From the IMG/VR virus record IMGVR_UViG_3300021365_000003: a stretch of DNA of 64,000 bases. One strand, 5' to 3'. Below, piece after piece: positions 4,030 through 18,778 of this stretch (positions are counted from its first letter, which is position 1; the number at the start of each line of letters is the position of its first letter). The notes under the pieces are model-generated. The model made no database searches and was not told the DNA's origin. It saw nothing but the letters and a program-made list of their open reading frames with translations. Origin of the DNA: a virus. The position numbers and the translations under genes are program-made.

Positions 4030-4081
4030 TTTTTGAGATTTTAAGACTATTTATAAGGCAAGAAACAATTTAAAAGGAAAA
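4030..4081 (+). repeat. about 52-bp promoter/RBS cassette, repeated at 4565..4616 and partly at 5597..5630
   Basis: AGATTTTAAGACTATTTATAAGGCAAGAAACA(A/T)TTTAAAAGGA in front of MK(I/L)TK genes. Confidence 0.9.
4046..4055 (+). promoter_or_regulatory. putative late promoter ACTATTTATA (core CTATTTA also at 4581, 5597, 8128, 9603, 10428, 11239, 17292, 22007, 44537, 47219, 56608)
   Basis: Recurrent CTATTTA(T) shortly upstream of structural and tagged genes, with no -35 element. Confidence 0.7.
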
Positions 4082-4085
4082 TTAA

Positions 4086-4538
4086 ATGAAAATCACAAAA
4101 CAGCATCTAACACATATCATTAAAGAAGAATTGGAAGCGATCATGCAGGAAGGCCAGTCCTTAAGCGATAAGATCGATAATCTTGTCAAGGATATCAAGG
4201 ACCCCGAAACCGGCGTCGATCTAGAGGAGCCTGACTTAATCAAAACGCCGAAATCGTTTCGGGGTCGGGGCACTCAGGTGTACTCAGGCGGTACCGGCGC
4301 CACCAAAGCTCCAAAAGCTTTTCTAAAATTGGGTTCAGAGAACGACACTAGAGCTGTATACAATTACCTCAAAGAAAGATCAGATAAAATAGAAAAAGGA
4401 ATCGTCGGAAAAAATCCGGACGTGAAAGCAACATTTTACATGCTTGGCAAAAATTTTCTTTTAAGAGACATAGATACAAAGAACTTTAGGGTATACTTTT
4501 CAACGGCCGGAATAATGAATAACGTTAGATATCTCTAG
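4086..4538 (+). CDS. MKITK..IIKEE-tagged protein, putative virion cargo
   Basis: N-terminus MKITKQHLTHIIKEELEAIMQE; late promoter upstream. Confidence 0.8.
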   Translation: MKITKQHLTHIIKEELEAIMQEGQSLSDKIDNLVKDIKDPETGVDLEEPDLIKTPKSFRGRGTQVYSGGTGATKAPKAFLKLGSENDTRAVYNYLKERSDKIEKGIVGKNPDVKATFYMLGKNFLLRDIDTKNFRVYFSTAGIMNNVRYL

Positions 4539-4621: not shown

Positions 4622-5017
4622 ATGAAGCTCACAAAAGAATACCTAACACAAATCATTAAAGAAGAGATAGAGAAGACGTATAAACACCCACTAGCCCGAG
4701 GAGTTCAGGTTGTTAAAACCGGCGAGACCGTCCGTCCAGAAGATCCAGATGATCCTCATGATGAAATGGCCGGCTATAAAGATACAACCTACGATATTCT
4801 AGATCAACAAGGAAACAAGATCGGCTTCCTAGAGCACGAAAACTACTTTGGCAACCTTGACGGCGAGTTGTACGATAGGTATCTTCCTAGATTGCAGGGA
4901 TATCGCTCTCACGGATCCGGACCATTAGGAAAATTACAATCTTTTTTCAAGTCTAAAACTGGAAGAAAGTGGCTTGATGTAAGCCAGAGAAGGATGCAAA
5001 AGAAAAAAAGTCAATGA
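4622..5017 (+). CDS. MKLTK..IIKEE-tagged protein, putative virion cargo
   Basis: N-terminus MKLTKEYLTQIIKEEIE; late promoter upstream. Confidence 0.8.
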   Translation: MKLTKEYLTQIIKEEIEKTYKHPLARGVQVVKTGETVRPEDPDDPHDEMAGYKDTTYDILDQQGNKIGFLEHENYFGNLDGELYDRYLPRLQGYRSHGSGPLGKLQSFFKSKTGRKWLDVSQRRMQKKKSQ

Positions 5018-5568
5018 AGCTCACAAAACAGTATCTTAGAACCTTAGTTGAAACGGTTTTGGTCGAAGCTTCAGAGGAACGCATTCCTTCCGAAGGGGGC
5101 ACAACGCAATTATACCACTTTACTCAAGAATCACCCGAGAACGCAAAGGAAAAGATATTGCTTGACCCAAAATTATTCGGAAAAATGGGTTATTCAAAAA
5201 AAGATTTGGCGATTTCGGCGGTTCCTCGCACGTTTTTCTATGTGAATCCAGCAGAGAAAGAAAGTTTTTTTGCTAACAAGGCGCTTTATACAGCAAACGT
5301 TCCCACGGCCGACATTTATAACCTTGCCGATGACCCGGAGGGGGTGAAAGCGGCAGTCCGAAAAGAAAACTATAACATTCTTGACATGGATCAGGTGCTA
5401 AAAAAGGTTTCCGGATGGCAACAAGGCGCTTGGGGCACCGAAAACCAAGGAAAATGGATAAAAAATCCTGGTATGGCCGATGGAATGTACTATGAAACAC
5501 CAAGTTTTGCTGTTGTGGTAATGTTCCGGCCCGTTGAGGCTTTTCTTTCCGACGAACAAACCTCTTAA
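5014..5568 (+). CDS. tagged protein with possible ADP-ribosyltransferase fold
   Basis: Tag MKLTKQYLRTLVETVLVE; LYHFT...FFY...LY...DGMYY...VVMFRP spacing resembles H-Y-type ART domains. Confidence 0.5.
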   Translation: MKLTKQYLRTLVETVLVEASEERIPSEGGTTQLYHFTQESPENAKEKILLDPKLFGKMGYSKKDLAISAVPRTFFYVNPAEKESFFANKALYTANVPTADIYNLADDPEGVKAAVRKENYNILDMDQVLKKVSGWQQGAWGTENQGKWIKNPGMADGMYYETPSFAVVVMFRPVEAFLSDEQTS

Positions 5569-5637
5569 ACATCAAAAAATTTATAAAAAATTCGAAACTA
5601 TTTATAAGGCAAGAAACATTTTAAAGGAGAAACAAAA

Positions 5638-6144
5638 ATGAAAATCACAAAACAGTACCTCGTTAAAGTCATCAAAGAGGAGCTTGAGGGGACACTCGAA
5701 GAAGACGAGAAACAAGGCGCCGCAATGATTTTAAAAGCATTAAATAAAGAGATCGCAGAAAGACCAGAACTGCAAAAAGACGTTAAAGCAATTGCAGAGG
5801 CGATATCGCTTAATGAAAACTCACCTCGATCGTACGCCTGGCACGACGCCCTGGAGACCGATCCTGAACGACTCGGCAAGGCAGGTGCGATCTTAGGAGG
5901 GGGTATCGGGGCCATGACAGGTACCGGTACGGCGGTGGCGGCCACCGTTGCAACCGCCATAGCTAGCCTCTCTAGCCCGCAAATAGCTGATATGATCCGG
6001 ATGCTTACCGATCGTGGGCTCATGACGTTTGGGCCGGCCGGGACTTTAGCAATCATGGGTACCGCAGCTGTGGTAATCCCTGCGATCATAGGCGCTATTA
6101 AAGGTTATAAGAAGGGAAAATCGATCGGGGTACCTAACTCCTAG
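5638..6144 (+). CDS. tagged protein with Gly/Ala-rich hydrophobic helices
   Basis: Tag MKITKQYLVKVIKEELE; GxxxG-rich GAILGGGIGAMTG and a C-terminal TM-like segment. Confidence 0.75.
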   Translation: MKITKQYLVKVIKEELEGTLEEDEKQGAAMILKALNKEIAERPELQKDVKAIAEAISLNENSPRSYAWHDALETDPERLGKAGAILGGGIGAMTGTGTAVAATVATAIASLSSPQIADMIRMLTDRGLMTFGPAGTLAIMGTAAVVIPAIIGAIKGYKKGKSIGVPNS

Positions 6145-6202
6145 AGCATGCCCCCTAGCATGTCAAACTATCGATAAAAACACCACTAAAAAGGAGAAAT
6201 TA

Positions 6203-7783
6203 ATGAAAAACTATAAAACAACCGTTATCGCTGCTTGCTTGGTTGGCATGATGGGCGCTTGTGCTGCGGATGGAAGTGTCTCGTATGAAGGCACAACAAA
6301 CGAACCTCGACCCTGCTGTGAGCCTGACGACAACCCACCGATCGACACCCAACCTGACGATCGGCCTCCAATTGCTTATCCCCCGGCGGACCCAATTGAC
6401 CCTCCTGTCGAGCCCCCTGTCGAGCCCCCTGCCGATCCTTTCGTGGAAGCAGAAGACCTTAGCGCCGACGAGCTTCAACGGGTCGAGATTCTCCGAGACT
6501 CTATCAATATTGGTTTGAATTTGGGCACAGAGCTTTACTTGGACCAAATGGCCATTCAATTGCAAAACCTCAACATTGCAATGGACTATAACCTTTCTCA
6601 TGAAGATTTGTTTGCCGGATTGGATGCATCAATAACGGATTGCCCTTTTGTGGAGTTTTACGATAATGTTGAACAAGCAAATTCGGTTTCCTGCGATTAT
6701 CTTGCGGACATGGCGAAAGTGGAAGTTTATTCTAGTTTAACACAAGAATTGGACGCTGCGCCGCTAACAAGTGCAATCGCCGGCTCTATTCATTTTGAGG
6801 AGGCCCAGTTTTGGTATGAGCAAGGAGCAATTAGCGCCTTGGAAGACAACCGTGTTCGGGTTCGCTTCGACCTAATGAACCGAGGCTTTTGTAGTATTGA
6901 GCCCACACCGGTGGAAAGCTCTTATATAAAAGGCATTGCGATCGGCCGGCAACACTTTGCGCAAACTTTTAATTTGGAATTAGAGCGACGAGGATTTGCT
7001 CCTTCTTATCCTGAAATGCCAATTATCGAGATCTGCGATGCTAATGAAGCTTTTATCGAACCGGCAATGAGCAACGCCCTTGGCAGCCTTGGAATGGCCA
7101 TGGAAGCCGAGCCTCTTTGTGCTTCTGACTATACCCCACCAAATGCCGAAGCTTCATTGCAGTGGGCGCAAGCTCAAATCGATTATGAGCGAGGCGTTCG
7201 TCAAGGTTTAGAAGATGAAATGGCCCTTGCGGCTGTTGCGGCGTTTCGGGTTATTCCTTGTAATGTTGGTGACCCGTTGGTGATTGACTTGGATGGCGAC
7301 GGTATTGAATTAAGCTCAATTAATGATGGAGTTAACTTTGACTTATACAACATTGGCCGAGAACAAGCAATGGCATGGCCTAATGGTGGCGACGGCTTTT
7401 TGGCTTATGATTGGAATGGTGATGGTGTTATAACTTCCGGCGCTGAACTTTTTGGAAACGTTCAAGGCGATTGGACCGACGGATTTGACCATCTTGCTTC
7501 TTTTGATTTAGACATGGACAACCTTATAACAAAAAATGATAAAATTTTTTCCGGGTTGGTTGTTTGGCAAGATATCAATCAAGATGGGCTTTGCGCCGCC
7601 AATGAGCTTTCACCCTTGGCCAACTTTGGTGTTTCTGCTGTCCCAACAATTGGTTCCGGCGGGCACGACGCTGTAAATGGAAACCCAATCCCGCTTGTTG
7701 CTTGGACCGAAGGTGAAGTGCTGCTTATTGGTGATGCCGAGCTTTCAATTGCCCCAAACCCCAGGCTTGCTCGCTTGGATTAA
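6203..7783 (+). CDS. putative lipoprotein with C-terminal FrpC-type self-processing module (SPM)
   Basis: Signal peptide ending GMMGAC, Pro-rich linker, then GD|PLVIDLDGDGIEL...DGFLAYDWNGDGVITSGAELFG...LVVWQDINQDG...EL. Confidence 0.8.
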   Translation: MKNYKTTVIAACLVGMMGACAADGSVSYEGTTNEPRPCCEPDDNPPIDTQPDDRPPIAYPPADPIDPPVEPPVEPPADPFVEAEDLSADELQRVEILRDSINIGLNLGTELYLDQMAIQLQNLNIAMDYNLSHEDLFAGLDASITDCPFVEFYDNVEQANSVSCDYLADMAKVEVYSSLTQELDAAPLTSAIAGSIHFEEAQFWYEQGAISALEDNRVRVRFDLMNRGFCSIEPTPVESSYIKGIAIGRQHFAQTFNLELERRGFAPSYPEMPIIEICDANEAFIEPAMSNALGSLGMAMEAEPLCASDYTPPNAEASLQWAQAQIDYERGVRQGLEDEMALAAVAAFRVIPCNVGDPLVIDLDGDGIELSSINDGVNFDLYNIGREQAMAWPNGGDGFLAYDWNGDGVITSGAELFGNVQGDWTDGFDHLASFDLDMDNLITKNDKIFSGLVVWQDINQDGLCAANELSPLANFGVSAVPTIGSGGHDAVNGNPIPLVAWTEGEVLLIGDAELSIAPNPRLARLD

Positions 7784-7804
7784 AATTAACTAAAGGAGAT
7801 TATA

Positions 7805-8065
7805 ATGAAAATCACAAAACAAAAACTTGTCAAGATCATCAAAGAAGAGCTTGAGGCTGCTCTTGATGAGTCAAAGAGCCCAATGCCCCTTGAAGATCTT
7901 ACTGATGCAGAGTGGGAATTTTGGAAAAGCGCTTTCGAAGAAGCCGAAGCTGCCGGTGCTGATGTCGATGAGGCATCCGCTCACGCAAATAAAGAAGTTG
8001 ATGCGCTAAGAAATGCGGAAACTTCCGAAGCCCTCCCGGCAAACGATGACGGCATAGACTTCTAA
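7805..8065 (+). CDS. small acidic tagged protein
   Basis: Tag MKITKQKLVKIIKEELEAALDE; AAGGAG RBS. Confidence 0.8.
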   Translation: MKITKQKLVKIIKEELEAALDESKSPMPLEDLTDAEWEFWKSAFEEAEAAGADVDEASAHANKEVDALRNAETSEALPANDDGIDF

Positions 8066-8087
8066 GAAAAATAAATCTTGCGAATCC

Positions 8088-8117
8088 AAGCCCCGCTTTT
8101 TCGGCGGGGCTTTTTTT
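8088..8117 (+). terminator. intrinsic terminator
   Basis: AAGCCCCGC-TTTTTCG-GCGGGGC followed by T7. Confidence 0.9.
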
Positions 8118-8168: not shown

Positions 8169-9320
8169 GTGAAAATCAAGAAAACTAGGCTGCTGCAAAT
8201 CATCCAAGAGGAGATTGCACGCATTGATGAAGATAAAGCGGAGAGCATGGAAGCACTTGCTGCCAAAGCCAAGGAAAACCCAAATAGTCCGGCGATGGAA
8301 GAGCTTTTAACCAGACTTTCAAAAAAGCATCGTTTTCTTGCGCTTAAGTTAGCCGGCGGAAACGAAGCTGACGCCGAGGACGCAATGCAAAGCGCCCTTA
8401 TCAAAATCATGACTCAAATTGGTGGGTTCCGAGGAGATTCTGCATTCTCCACTTGGGCCGGCGCCATTATGAAAAATGAATTAATTGACAGTTTCCGAGC
8501 AGGACGCAAAGAGCTTCCTTTTGCCGGTGGCGGCGCAGCTGAAGGCGAGCCGGATATCACAAGTATGTCCGACAAGAGCGAAATCTATCCGTTGGTTCCA
8601 AAAATTAAGAACCCCGAGCAGATTCTTCTTGACAAAGAGCGCAATGAAGCTTTCGATGCTATGGTCCAAGCAATCAAGGATGACAAAATCAACCTCAACG
8701 ATCGGCAAAAAATTGTTACCCTAAATCAGTTTGCGGCCGATCCAAAGTCAGTCGAGGAACTGCGTGTCGAGCTTGGTTACAACACTGTCGGAGAAGTTGG
8801 TCGTGAAATTTCTCGGTCACGTGAAAGAATTGATCGATGGTTGTACTCTCCAGGTGATGAAGGCGTCAAGAAAACTCTTCGAATCGCATTTGCTGGTGGT
8901 GTGAAGCCCGGCGATATCCGAGAAGGCGAAACAGCCGATCGTATGTTTGATGATGCCGAAGCTATCAGAGCAGATGAAAAGCAGTTCTTTGAAGACTTTT
9001 ATAAATGGGCTTATGATAATTATGGCTCAATGGTCGAGGACGGTGAGCTTGACGATGAGCTTTTAGCTGTTTACCGAAAAGTTTTAGCTAAGTCAGAAGA
9101 TCCTGATGCCGACCTTATGGAGCCCGGAATCGACTTGGACTATGAATCACTTCCAAAGGCAGGATCAATGGCTGGTTCATCGACGAATCCGACTCCCCCA
9201 ACAGCAAGACGTCGAGGATCTATGTTTCCTCGACGACCAGATGAAAGATATCGCAAAAATGAAGAACTTTCTTTAGAAGAAACAATTGCTGCAGTCGTAA
9301 AAGAGACTTTGGGTCTATAA
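8169..9320 (+). CDS. ECF (RpoE-like) RNA polymerase sigma factor with N-terminal cargo tag and acidic C-terminal extension
   Basis: Sigma2: DAEDAMQSALIK...FRGDSAFSTW...N..ID.FR; sigma4-like LNDRQKIV...SVEELRVELG..VGEVGREISRSRERI; GTG start with AAGGAG RBS. Confidence 0.88.
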   Translation: MKIKKTRLLQIIQEEIARIDEDKAESMEALAAKAKENPNSPAMEELLTRLSKKHRFLALKLAGGNEADAEDAMQSALIKIMTQIGGFRGDSAFSTWAGAIMKNELIDSFRAGRKELPFAGGGAAEGEPDITSMSDKSEIYPLVPKIKNPEQILLDKERNEAFDAMVQAIKDDKINLNDRQKIVTLNQFAADPKSVEELRVELGYNTVGEVGREISRSRERIDRWLYSPGDEGVKKTLRIAFAGGVKPGDIREGETADRMFDDAEAIRADEKQFFEDFYKWAYDNYGSMVEDGELDDELLAVYRKVLAKSEDPDADLMEPGIDLDYESLPKAGSMAGSSTNPTPPTARRRGSMFPRRPDERYRKNEELSLEETIAAVVKETLGL

Positions 9321-9571: not shown

Positions 9572-9613
9572 AAATATTTGTGGTTATTTTCACTTGCGGT
9601 TTCTATTTATTTT

Positions 9614-10402
9614 ATGCGGCGAATGATTTTTATTGCGATTTTTTGTTTTTCTTTGTTTGATTGTAAAGGAAATAATCTCTCTCAAACGTCTTCTGCCGCC
9701 TCCGAAGTTTTTGTCCCGGCCCTTGCCTATGTTCAACTCTCCAAAGCGCTTACAATGCGTTTTGAGGGCAATGAAATACCTTATGGTTGGTGGTCTGCCG
9801 GCGGTGTTTGCATCAAAAGCGACGAAGATGGCTGTTTTATCTTAACTGTTGATCATTTTTGCCATTCTGACCCCGAAGATTTGTTTGGGCCGGAGCCAGA
9901 GCACATTGATTATAACGTTAATTTTAATTATTCTTTTTCTGGTGAGAACTTGGTTGGCGATTTCGGTGATGGCTGGGTGGTTGCGCAAAATCCGGATGTT
10001 GATTTATGCTTGATTTGGCTTCAAGGCGACTTTGATCATGAAATTAATGCTATAGCTGATGAAGGAAACATAAAATTTTTTGCTGAGCTTCATAATTGGG
10101 GCGCACCAAGAGGATTTTTCCGCACATTTCCTTCTTTTGGGCTGCTTTTGTTTGAAGGATACTGGGGAGGTTGGTGTGACGACTTTTGTCAGCTTCCAAA
10201 TAACTTAGATGGAAACAACTTTTTCATGCATTCTATTCCCACATCTTCTGGCCAGTCCGGATCTGCCATCTTTTTAGGTGATAAACTGTTTGGATTGCAA
10301 GTTGCTTCAAATTCTTCTGTTGATAGTTTTGGAATTTCAGCTCGTCCGTCTATTATAAATAATTTTCTAAGGGCAAATAACATTGTCAAGCCTTATTTAT
10401 AA
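9614..10402 (+). CDS. secreted trypsin-like serine protease
   Basis: ILTVDHFC (His), VDLCLI (Asp), GQSGSAIF (Ser); hydrophobic N-terminus; start codon uncertain. Confidence 0.75.
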   Translation: MRRMIFIAIFCFSLFDCKGNNLSQTSSAASEVFVPALAYVQLSKALTMRFEGNEIPYGWWSAGGVCIKSDEDGCFILTVDHFCHSDPEDLFGPEPEHIDYNVNFNYSFSGENLVGDFGDGWVVAQNPDVDLCLIWLQGDFDHEINAIADEGNIKFFAELHNWGAPRGFFRTFPSFGLLLFEGYWGGWCDDFCQLPNNLDGNNFFMHSIPTSSGQSGSAIFLGDKLFGLQVASNSSVDSFGISARPSIINNFLRANNIVKPYL

Positions 10403-18467: not shown

Positions 18468-18775
18468 GGGGATGCACTGGCTTCGACTTGGAATAAAAAA
18501 TAAATCGTGCAAAAGCTTGGCTGGACATACGAAAACCAGAAAAAAAATAATTGCCAACAATAACGTTGAATTTGACTCTGTTGCGTTAGCAGCATAATCA
18601 GGGGGCGGCAACTGCCTTTTTATCCAAAGTTGCTTTTTTGTTAATTTGTTTCTATTTAATGTAGATTCCCTCATTGTATGAGGTGGCTTGTTAGTCGGGT
18701 GGTTGACTAACTAATTTTGTGAATGACGATTGATTTTAAGTTTTAAGGACTGGGGTTCGACTCCCCACATCTCCA
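18468..18775 (+). ncRNA. ssrA: tmRNA, tag (A)ANNNVEFDSVALAA
   Basis: GGGGATG/CATCTCC-A acceptor with G3:U, GGCTTCGAC 5' motif, GGGGTTCGACTCCCC T arm; tag ORF 18553..18597 ends ALAA-stop. Confidence 0.95.
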
Positions 18776-18778
18776 CTA

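Follow-up and report, generated by a model that had tools for sequence, protein, structure and literature searches.

What use would a bacteriophage have for a lipoprotein that carries, at its C-terminal end, a domain known for cutting itself off its carrier? The question is raised by a gene at positions 6203-7783 of the plus strand in a 64,000-nucleotide stretch of DNA (henceforth the window, meaning the whole stretch that was analysed) from IMG/VR record IMGVR_UViG_3300021365_000003, the genome of an uncultured marine T4-like phage. The open reading frame (ORF) runs from an ATG start to a TAA stop and encodes a protein of 526 residues. An earlier note on this DNA, made from the letters alone, had described the product as a lipoprotein ending in a calcium-dependent self-processing module (SPM) such as occurs in the Neisseria protein FrpC. 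Taking all lines of analysis together, we consider a working phage gene for a self-clipping envelope lipoprotein to be the best explanation of the locus, and a probable one. Below we give the evidence for the module and its carrier, trace the gene to its cellular relatives, and weigh what the reactive end of the clipped protein might be joined to.

By sequence, fold and residues alike, the C-terminal domain is a genuine FrpC-type SPM. A phmmer search of all PDB chains with the protein matched only the two structures of the FrpC SPM (6sjw, E 2.9e-21; 6sjx, E 5.5e-21), and the alignment with chain 6sjw_A pairs residues 358-496 of the query with chain residues 1-147 at 36% identity, starting at the Asp-Pro. 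The comparison of structures that the earlier note had proposed as a check gave the same answer. An AlphaFold model built on 50 relatives (mean predicted local distance difference test score, pLDDT, of 81, and about 90 in both folded domains) was matched to 6sjw by Foldseek with an E of 4.7e-11 and a TM of 0.73 over 176/179 columns. VIA-align superposed model residues 358-521 on residues 1-175 of the 6sjw chain with a Z of 20.1 (root-mean-square deviation 2.3 A over 151 residues), while the next match reached a Z of 7.7. The SPM fold has been described as novel and without any other look-alike in the PDB. Local copies of Pfam and NCBIfam gave no match for the protein, the Pfam copy being one without the SPM family PF26745. 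In precomputed annotation PF26745 marks all relatives of the phage protein and all RTX SPM proteins, and its presence on the latter indicates that it is the SPM family.

The residues on which the FrpC reaction depends, with the roles assigned to them by Kuban et al. 2020 (PMC7078468), are in place (Table 1). The scissile pair Asp357-Pro358 lies exactly where the earlier note had put it and opens NVG-DP-LVIDLDGDGIEL; the stretch reads DPLVIDLDGDGIEL. The full run of calcium-binding motifs announced in the same note follows: all four calcium-site motifs are kept, D397 completing the residue set of the incomplete EF-hand-like site, and so is the pair of tryptophans, W392 and W455 (FrpC W451/W519). 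After the first loop come L416, G418 and N419 in the places of FrpC L475, G477 and D478, L416 and G418 being port residues. Towards the C-terminus, D511 stands in 34/34 family genes, and its counterpart is D or E in 83/88 RTX SPMs; its probable equivalence to FrpC D579 comes from the alignment and from a fold match that extends to chain residue 175, and is not a residue-by-residue assignment. D357, P358, D362, G367, W392, D397, D403, E415, G418, D435, D446, W455, D457, E468 and D511 are kept in 13/13 viral and 21/21 cellular sequences. The calcium-ligand positions are conserved throughout, with exchanges between Asp and Asn only where RTX SPMs also have one or the other.

Such constancy is not general among SPMs, since the scissile position is Asp in only 48/88 RTX SPMs. 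In 33/88 RTX-type SPM proteins (P0177-P0264) it is replaced by Ser or Thr, giving S-P or T-P, and the same replacement is seen in distant members of the lipoprotein family (P0161, P0162, P0168, P0169 and P0176). Modules of this kind cannot form an Asp anhydride and so may be inactive or use some other chemistry. The phage protein also lacks RTX repeats, as the earlier note had said: it contains zero GGxGxD motifs and has no match to HemolysinCabind (PF00353) at E up to 1, and the SPM ends the protein. Agreement of this extent between the described and the observed layout far exceeds what chance would give.

As judged from its N-terminal sequence, the protein is very likely a real exported lipoprotein. 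The signal reads MKNYKTTVIAACLVGMMGA, with a hydrophobic core of 12 residues that is part of the sole hydrophobic segment of the protein, and is followed by C20. A lipobox is found in all viral and cellular relatives examined, so that pattern and conservation both place this N-terminus among lipoprotein signals. Inner-membrane lipoproteins are marked by Lys at position +2 in Myxococcus xanthus and by Asp at that position in E. coli (PMC3222651). The +2 residue here is neither, and the lipoprotein is therefore probably located in the outer membrane.

Between the lipidation site and the SPM lie the proline-rich stalk and the cysteine-containing helical domain of the earlier description, both of which the model bears out: the stalk stays below a pLDDT of 50, and the domain that follows (henceforth the head) is all helical. 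In an alignment of 50 sequences the head has six invariant cysteines (C147, C164, C230, C278, C306 and C353), as expected of a protein that folds outside the cytoplasm. Its modelled fold is unassigned to known folds. Foldseek gave nothing below an E of 0.06 in the PDB, and a wide VIA search reached at best a Z of 7.7 on scattered helical membrane proteins, under the helical background. There was nothing in BFVD and no usable match in the ESM Atlas, results that do not in themselves prove the fold to be novel. When the head by itself was searched exhaustively with HMMER against 1.84 billion representatives, only 61 proteins were returned, and nearly all complete head matches run straight into D-P and the SPM. 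This near-constant coupling indicates that head and SPM are one evolutionary unit; indeed, the head was found solely in the lipobox-linker-head-SPM layout. The protein is also extremely acidic: the mature head has a net charge of about -45, and the SPM one of -22.

Origin of the gene and its cellular relatives

The layout of the phage protein, with a lipobox, a linker, a six-cysteine helical head and D-P plus SPM in about 500-650 residues, is that of a family found in bacteria. The full architecture is present in 24 GTDB species of Myxococcota, from Myxococcales, Bradymonadales, Polyangiaceae and unclassified metagenome-assembled genomes (MAGs), and the phage protein is 39-54% identical to the products of these 24 genes over the full length. 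The bacterial contigs are up to 369 kb long, have a GC content of 53-70% and belong to aquatic Myxococcota. In a sample of 301 Myxococcota genomes, five of which had been picked beforehand as carriers, 12 genomes have the family. We conclude that the head-plus-SPM lipoproteins form a small cellular family at home in aquatic Myxococcota and were not invented by phages, a point absent from the earlier note.

The bacterial gene has a companion. In 18/24 loci it is adjoined by the gene for a second lipoprotein, which lies directly downstream in 16 and upstream on the other strand in 2 (L034 and L037). This partner has about 600 residues and combines a Big_7 Ig-like domain with a PQQ/BamB-like beta-propeller. 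With 15 partner proteins as queries, tblastn found no homologue in the phage genome (168.9 kb) or among the 13 viral loci described next, and PADLOC gave no match for either the gene or its partner.

The survey of other phages suggested in the earlier note turned up the same architecture in 13 IMG/VR contigs of low GC content (36-45%), which carry the gene without the partner. Two of these viral loci, L003 and L005, are syntenic with the window and have the gene at a different spot, and a third, L002, contains phage-type nucleotide-metabolism genes. Copies of 96-99% identity occur in several marine metagenomes; the metagenome scan as a whole gave copies of 91-99% identity and, beyond these, only unrelated SPM proteins. 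The relatives P0002-P0004 are 64-74% identical to the phage protein. One metagenomic copy (L049:2-1288) differs from the window copy by a synonymous divergence (dS) of 0.07 in the head and 0.58 in the SPM. This disparity suggests that the SPM part has been swapped by recombination between phage variants.

Other SPM carriers in IMG/VR are confined to three contigs with proteins of 1,100-3,200 residues, 2/3 of them with 12-19 RTX repeats, and none of the three has the lipoprotein-plus-head layout. The lipoprotein form is thus the main viral form of the SPM within IMG/VR; further non-RTX carriers of an SPM are found among metagenomic proteins. When the phage protein was compared with PHROGs, a search in which small, fast-evolving families of exclusion lipoproteins and spanins are easily missed, only phrog_3677 matched, and it did so through the SPM part. 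This family is annotated 'protease' and has a profile length of 1125, of which positions 74-204 are matched by the SPM (E 1.3e-13). An SPM-like stretch with 35% identity also occurs in an unannotated human-gut phage contig (MT835772.1:1038-1478). Phage SPMs may be hidden under the 'protease' label of phrog_3677.

How did the gene reach phages? A maximum-likelihood tree, with its root placed on the most distant Myxococcota copies, has viral sequences at three places: the window copy and L001 have a Myxococcales gene as their sister, L002 has a different Myxococcales gene as its sister, and ten viral sequences form one clade (support 100 in each case). A tree with a single viral clade was rejected (delta lnL 175; approximately unbiased test, p-AU 7.6e-41). 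Read from these branchings, the gene entered phages on at least three occasions, and Myxococcota were probably its source: that the viral clades nest among bacterial ones, and that the partner is found only in bacteria, makes bacteria the likelier donors.

Could the gene be an inert passenger, caught by chance from a host, unused and now decaying? Its GC content is 47.9%, and at third codon positions (GC3) it reaches 0.427, a little more than in the other phage genes (mean 0.368, sd 0.026); the surrounding region consists of small, variable genes. Yet the frame is intact and all functional residues are kept. Among phage copies the overall ratio of nonsynonymous to synonymous substitution (dN/dS) is 0.10-0.26, with values of 0.06-0.09 for the head and 0.09-0.26 for the SPM, and by this measure the phage copies are under purifying selection in both domains (0.1-0.26). 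Moreover, capture occurred independently three times, and the viral clade of 10 diverged members persists. The GC3 itself argues the same way: it lies near that of the phage genes and far from that of a donor of about 68% GC, so that it has largely ameliorated, the capture is old and the gene has been kept. Decay of an unused gene is a highly improbable account of these data.

The three gene exchanges also bear on the host. The phage encodes a transfer-messenger RNA (tmRNA) at 18468-18776 with the tag ANNNVEFDSVALAA, and two marine Myxococcota MAGs that have the lipoprotein family encode the tag ANDNVDFALAA, the first part of the tag reading frame being near-identical. Overall, the phage and Myxococcota tmRNAs are 44-49% identical, no closer than Myxococcota tmRNAs are among themselves, and the likeness of the tags is a weak hint. 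Together with the exchanges it hints at Myxococcota as the likely hosts.

Proposed fate of the reactive aspartate

On the precedent of FrpC there is good ground to expect that calcium triggers clipping and that the fragment left behind is lipid-anchored and has a reactive Asp at its C-terminus; we regard calcium-dependent cleavage at D357 as very likely. In the sequence of events that we propose, the protein would be exported by Sec, lipidated at Cys20 and probably sorted to the outer membrane by Lol, with the head hanging from a flexible stalk some 60 residues long and with disulfides between its six cysteines. In the calcium-rich periplasm or in sea water, where calcium would lie well above the affinity of about 150 uM reported for the SPM (PMC7078468), the module would fold and twist the Asp357-Pro358 bond. 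Asp357 would then attack its own carbonyl, freeing a soluble SPM and leaving a lipid-anchored head (residues 20-357) that ends in a cyclic Asp anhydride. A nearby amine would capture the anhydride and form an isopeptide bond.

Which amine this would be is the central question. The target that we favour is a host envelope protein bound by the head, since what the phage captured is a lipoprotein gene of Myxococcota, whose copies in bacteria adjoin a partner that the phage is without. The specific candidate would be that partner, the host lipoprotein with Ig-like domain and beta-propeller. Linkage in trans to some component of the host envelope has, in our estimate, an even chance of being correct. 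The phage would gain from an irreversible change of the envelope of the infected cell, most plausibly through receptor masking or superinfection exclusion; either purpose, already named in the earlier note and reasonable by analogy with phage exclusion lipoproteins, is proposed here only tentatively. In its complete form this reading would make the phage protein a covalent decoy of the host lipoprotein: the head would dock on the Ig-plus-propeller lipoprotein, on another envelope protein or on a peptidoglycan amine, and the Asp357 anhydride would lock it there irreversibly, with masking or exclusion as the outcome. The complete chain is a speculative one.

The anhydride might instead never leave its own chain. 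In such a maturation, the SPM would be a self-removing pro-domain, the Asp357 anhydride would be caught in cis by Lys243 or hydrolysed, and the matured head (locked by an isopeptide if Lys243 is the acceptor) would bind its target non-covalently, with no host protein attached. Lys243 (codon 6929-6931) is Lys in 49/50 relatives and never Arg, whereas K172, the other retained lysine of the head, is Lys or Arg interchangeably. The mature protein has four lysines only (0.8%, against 7.7 +/- 2.5% in 34 other ORFs of the phage), which leaves few competing acceptors. The invariant Cys353 lies four residues N-terminal to Asp357, and a disulfide there could hold the reactive end against the head. FrpC, moreover, links non-specifically to adjacent lysines, its own included (PMC7078468). 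However, the depletion of lysine is no family trait, as other viral copies have 8-21 lysines in the head, and it may be inherited from the donor of 68% GC; the conserved lipoprotein partner of the bacterial genes suggests a second player. We hold maturation in cis to be rather unlikely, though a serious contender. Lysine depletion was also considered as a family signature of avoiding self-linkage and was rejected, because it is confined to the clade of the window copy and its high-GC sister.

Aspartyl anhydrides acylate accessible primary amines, in principle any of them, and the acceptor need not be a protein side chain. The lipoprotein could be an outer-membrane tether resembling an o-spanin, whose anhydride joins peptidoglycan (through the free amine of diaminopimelate) or an inner-membrane partner and so holds or disrupts the envelope at lysis. 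A lipoprotein with a Pro-rich stalk would suit this role, and the upstream ORF at 5638-6144 may be a membrane protein of the same unit. But known o-spanins are several times smaller than this protein of 526 residues, PHROGs gave no match to a spanin or lysis family, and the stalk is Thr/Glu-rich rather than Pro-rich in other viral clades. The bacterial homologues, furthermore, lie on chromosomes together with a lipoprotein partner and are not genes for lysis. A part in lysis or envelope bridging is accordingly improbable.

Returning to the self-clipping lipoprotein that acts on the host envelope, several observations weigh against it. FrpC D478, a ligand of the transient fifth calcium, corresponds to Asn419 in the phage protein and to Asn or Thr across the family; mutagenesis showed that neither D478 nor D579 is the catalytic proton donor (PMC7078468), and because D478 is not the catalytic residue, its replacement is probably tolerated. 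A second lipobox-like site is present at Cys12, and the case for signal peptide, lipidation and sorting is one of pattern and conservation. Cleavage, anhydride and linkage would all follow the example of FrpC and ApxIVA, and the proposed partner is drawn from bacterial gene neighbourhood. Lys243 and Cys353, the former so constant and the latter so near the cleavage site, are as compatible with a cis reaction as with a trans one. Finally, at 42% the GC content of the phage is much lower than in the Myxococcota genomes where the family occurs.

Local gene layout

The record from which the window is taken is 168,882 bp long and is estimated to be 93% complete. Nearly all of its genes lie on a single strand, and they include genes for a baseplate wedge, PhoH, a sigma-factor-like protein, 3 tRNAs and the tmRNA. 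The baseplate, PhoH, tRNA and tmRNA genes, together with the completeness of the record, confirm its phage origin. No close cultured relative was found, the best matches of the baseplate being at 27-31% identity to Microcystis and Flavobacterium phages.

Three genes (5638-6144, 6203-7783 and 7805-8065), the middle one being that of the lipoprotein, may form a unit driven by the cassette CTATTTATAA at 5598. On the plus strand no terminator-like site was predicted from 5598 to 8088 apart from a weak one within ORF 6203-7783, and a hairpin would close the unit (Table 1). The downstream ORF, which also adjoins the lipoprotein gene in viral locus L001, is probably co-transcribed with it, and the upstream ORF may be. 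Family searches with the ORFs neighbouring the lipoprotein gene gave nothing informative. The upstream ORF (168 residues), likewise without a family match, has two Gly/Ala-rich hydrophobic segments in its C-terminal half that resemble a membrane hairpin.

Exact copies of CTATTTATAA occur in the window at 4047, 4582, 5598, 8129 and 56609. Six otherwise unrelated ORFs (4086-4538, 4622-5017, 5014-5568, 5638-6144, 7805-8065 and 8169-9320) share the N-terminal tag MK(I/L)(T/K)K..L...I.EE, and 4/6 start 30-40 nt after an exact copy (those at 4047, 4582, 5598 and 8129). The SPM lipoprotein gene lies within this array, yet it is untagged and is preceded only by the degenerate element CTATCGATAA. A second promoter-like element, GGATAA-N16-GTCTAA, of extracytoplasmic function (ECF) type, is present in four copies further upstream (2359, 2801, 3065 and 3437), none of them directly 5' of the lipoprotein gene. 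Beyond the array, ORF 9578-10402 (274 residues) has a weak match to the Trypsin_2 peptidase family (E 7.9e-06), just under the Pfam cut-off.

Table 1. Positions of the features of the SPM lipoprotein gene and its surroundings in the window
Feature	Position	Strand	Basis or remark
Promoter-like cassette CTATTTATAA, closest exact upstream copy	5598-5607	+	sequence read
Degenerate cassette CTATCGATAA, then ribosome-binding site AAGGAGA	6167-6197	+	8/10 positions as in CTATTTATAA of neighbouring genes
GGAG (in ribosome-binding site AAGGAGA)	6193-6196	+	5 nt 5' of ATG
Signal peptide, residues 1-19	6203-6259	+	K2 and K5 in n-region, hydrophobic core, M-G-A before Cys20
Cys20, predicted lipid-modified first mature residue	6260-6262	+	invariant in 50/50 sequences; +2 residue Ala
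Disordered Pro-rich acidic linker (stalk), residues 21-80	6263-6442	+	18 Pro and 14 Asp/Glu per 60; pLDDT 32-49
All-alpha head, residues 81-356	6443-7270	+	AlphaFold model and alignment; six invariant Cys
Scissile Asp357-Pro358, GAC CCG	7271-7276	+	aligns to FrpC D414-P415; invariant in 34/34 family genes and in the 50-sequence alignment
SPM, residues 358-526, to C-terminus	7274-7780	+	sequence and fold match to FrpC SPM
Incomplete EF-hand-like calcium site D362-x-D364-x-D366-G367	7286-7303	+	FrpC D419, D421, D423, G424
EF-hand-like calcium loop 1, D403..E415	7409-7447	+	FrpC D462-E474
EF-hand-like calcium loop 2, D435..D446	7505-7540	+	FrpC D499-D510
W455 (FrpC W519) and EF-hand-like calcium loop 3, D457..E468 (FrpC D521-E532)	7565-7606	+	
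G510-D511-A-E-L514	7730-7744	+	probable counterpart of FrpC D579-L582 strand closing the cleavage port
Downstream acidic ORF, 86 residues, N-terminal tag MKITKQ..	7805-8065	+	21-nt gap holding only a ribosome-binding site
Intrinsic-terminator-like hairpin closing the unit	8088-8112	+	10-bp stem, 7 GC pairs, T run after

Comparison with known systems

The SPM has been published as a peculiarity of giant RTX proteins secreted by type I systems, in which it has no clear role, and has been described as exclusive to RTX proteins (PMC7078468). Here it ends a short lipoprotein predicted to be exported by Sec and would therefore work in a second context of secretion and anchoring. In our search of the literature no paper dealt with SPMs in phages, in Myxococcota or in lipoproteins; new in the present analysis are the bacterial origin of the gene, its partner, the repeated transfers and the data on selection. 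The Myxococcota pair of SPM lipoprotein and propeller lipoprotein offers a defined two-gene system for identifying the natural acceptor of the anhydride. That phages captured the gene repeatedly and keep it under purifying selection suggests that the reaction is useful in infection, and points to a phage strategy that has not been described so far, the covalent modification of the host envelope. If the phage protein is a covalent decoy, it would be the first clip-and-link system to depend on Sec and also the first in a virus, and one useful enough for phages to have taken it up at least three times. The gene also connects an uncultured lineage of marine T4-like phages with Myxococcota, their likely hosts. 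In addition, SPMs that are compact, poor in Lys and naturally C-terminal are of practical interest for ligation tools based on the anhydride (NeissLock; PMC7846742, PMC12538545).

The closest comparison is with FrpC and FrpA of Neisseria meningitidis and ApxIVA of Actinobacillus pleuropneumoniae, with which the phage protein has the SPM of 6sjw and 6sjx in common, including the Asp-Pro at the N-terminal edge of the domain, the four EF-hand-like calcium sites, the Trp-Trp pair and the C-terminal closing strand. Because these features are shared, the same chemistry is to be expected, in which calcium makes the module fold, an amide is twisted, and an Asp anhydride and then an Asp-Lys isopeptide form. 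The carriers differ. Theirs is an RTX protein of more than 1,000 residues exported by a type I system, whereas that of the phage is a 526-residue Sec/Lol lipoprotein in which the SPM is the last domain, with neither RTX repeats nor a C-terminal secretion signal after it. The phage cargo is a lipid-anchored, disulfide-rich head, and Asn replaces FrpC D478. Without RTX repeats and the features of type I export, the protein falls outside the class of clip-and-link RTX exoproteins, whose members also lack an N-terminal signal peptide.

In the organization of its genes the Myxococcota family recalls frpD-frpC, where a clip-and-link gene likewise adjoins a lipoprotein gene (PMC5233953). Unlike FrpC, however, the SPM protein of Myxococcota is itself lipidated by prediction, its neighbour is an Ig-plus-beta-propeller protein unrelated to FrpD, and the pairing is known here from gene adjacency; the phage carries the SPM protein alone.

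Among phage proteins the nearest parallel is provided by the superinfection-exclusion lipoproteins Llp of T5 and Cor of phi80 and N15. Like them, the protein described here is a phage-encoded lipoprotein that would be sent to the host envelope, and blocking of a receptor would be an analogous outcome. No sequence relation to them emerged from the PHROG comparison, in which phrog_3677 was the only match. Llp and Cor are small and act non-covalently, whereas for the phage SPM lipoprotein a covalent, irreversible step is predicted.

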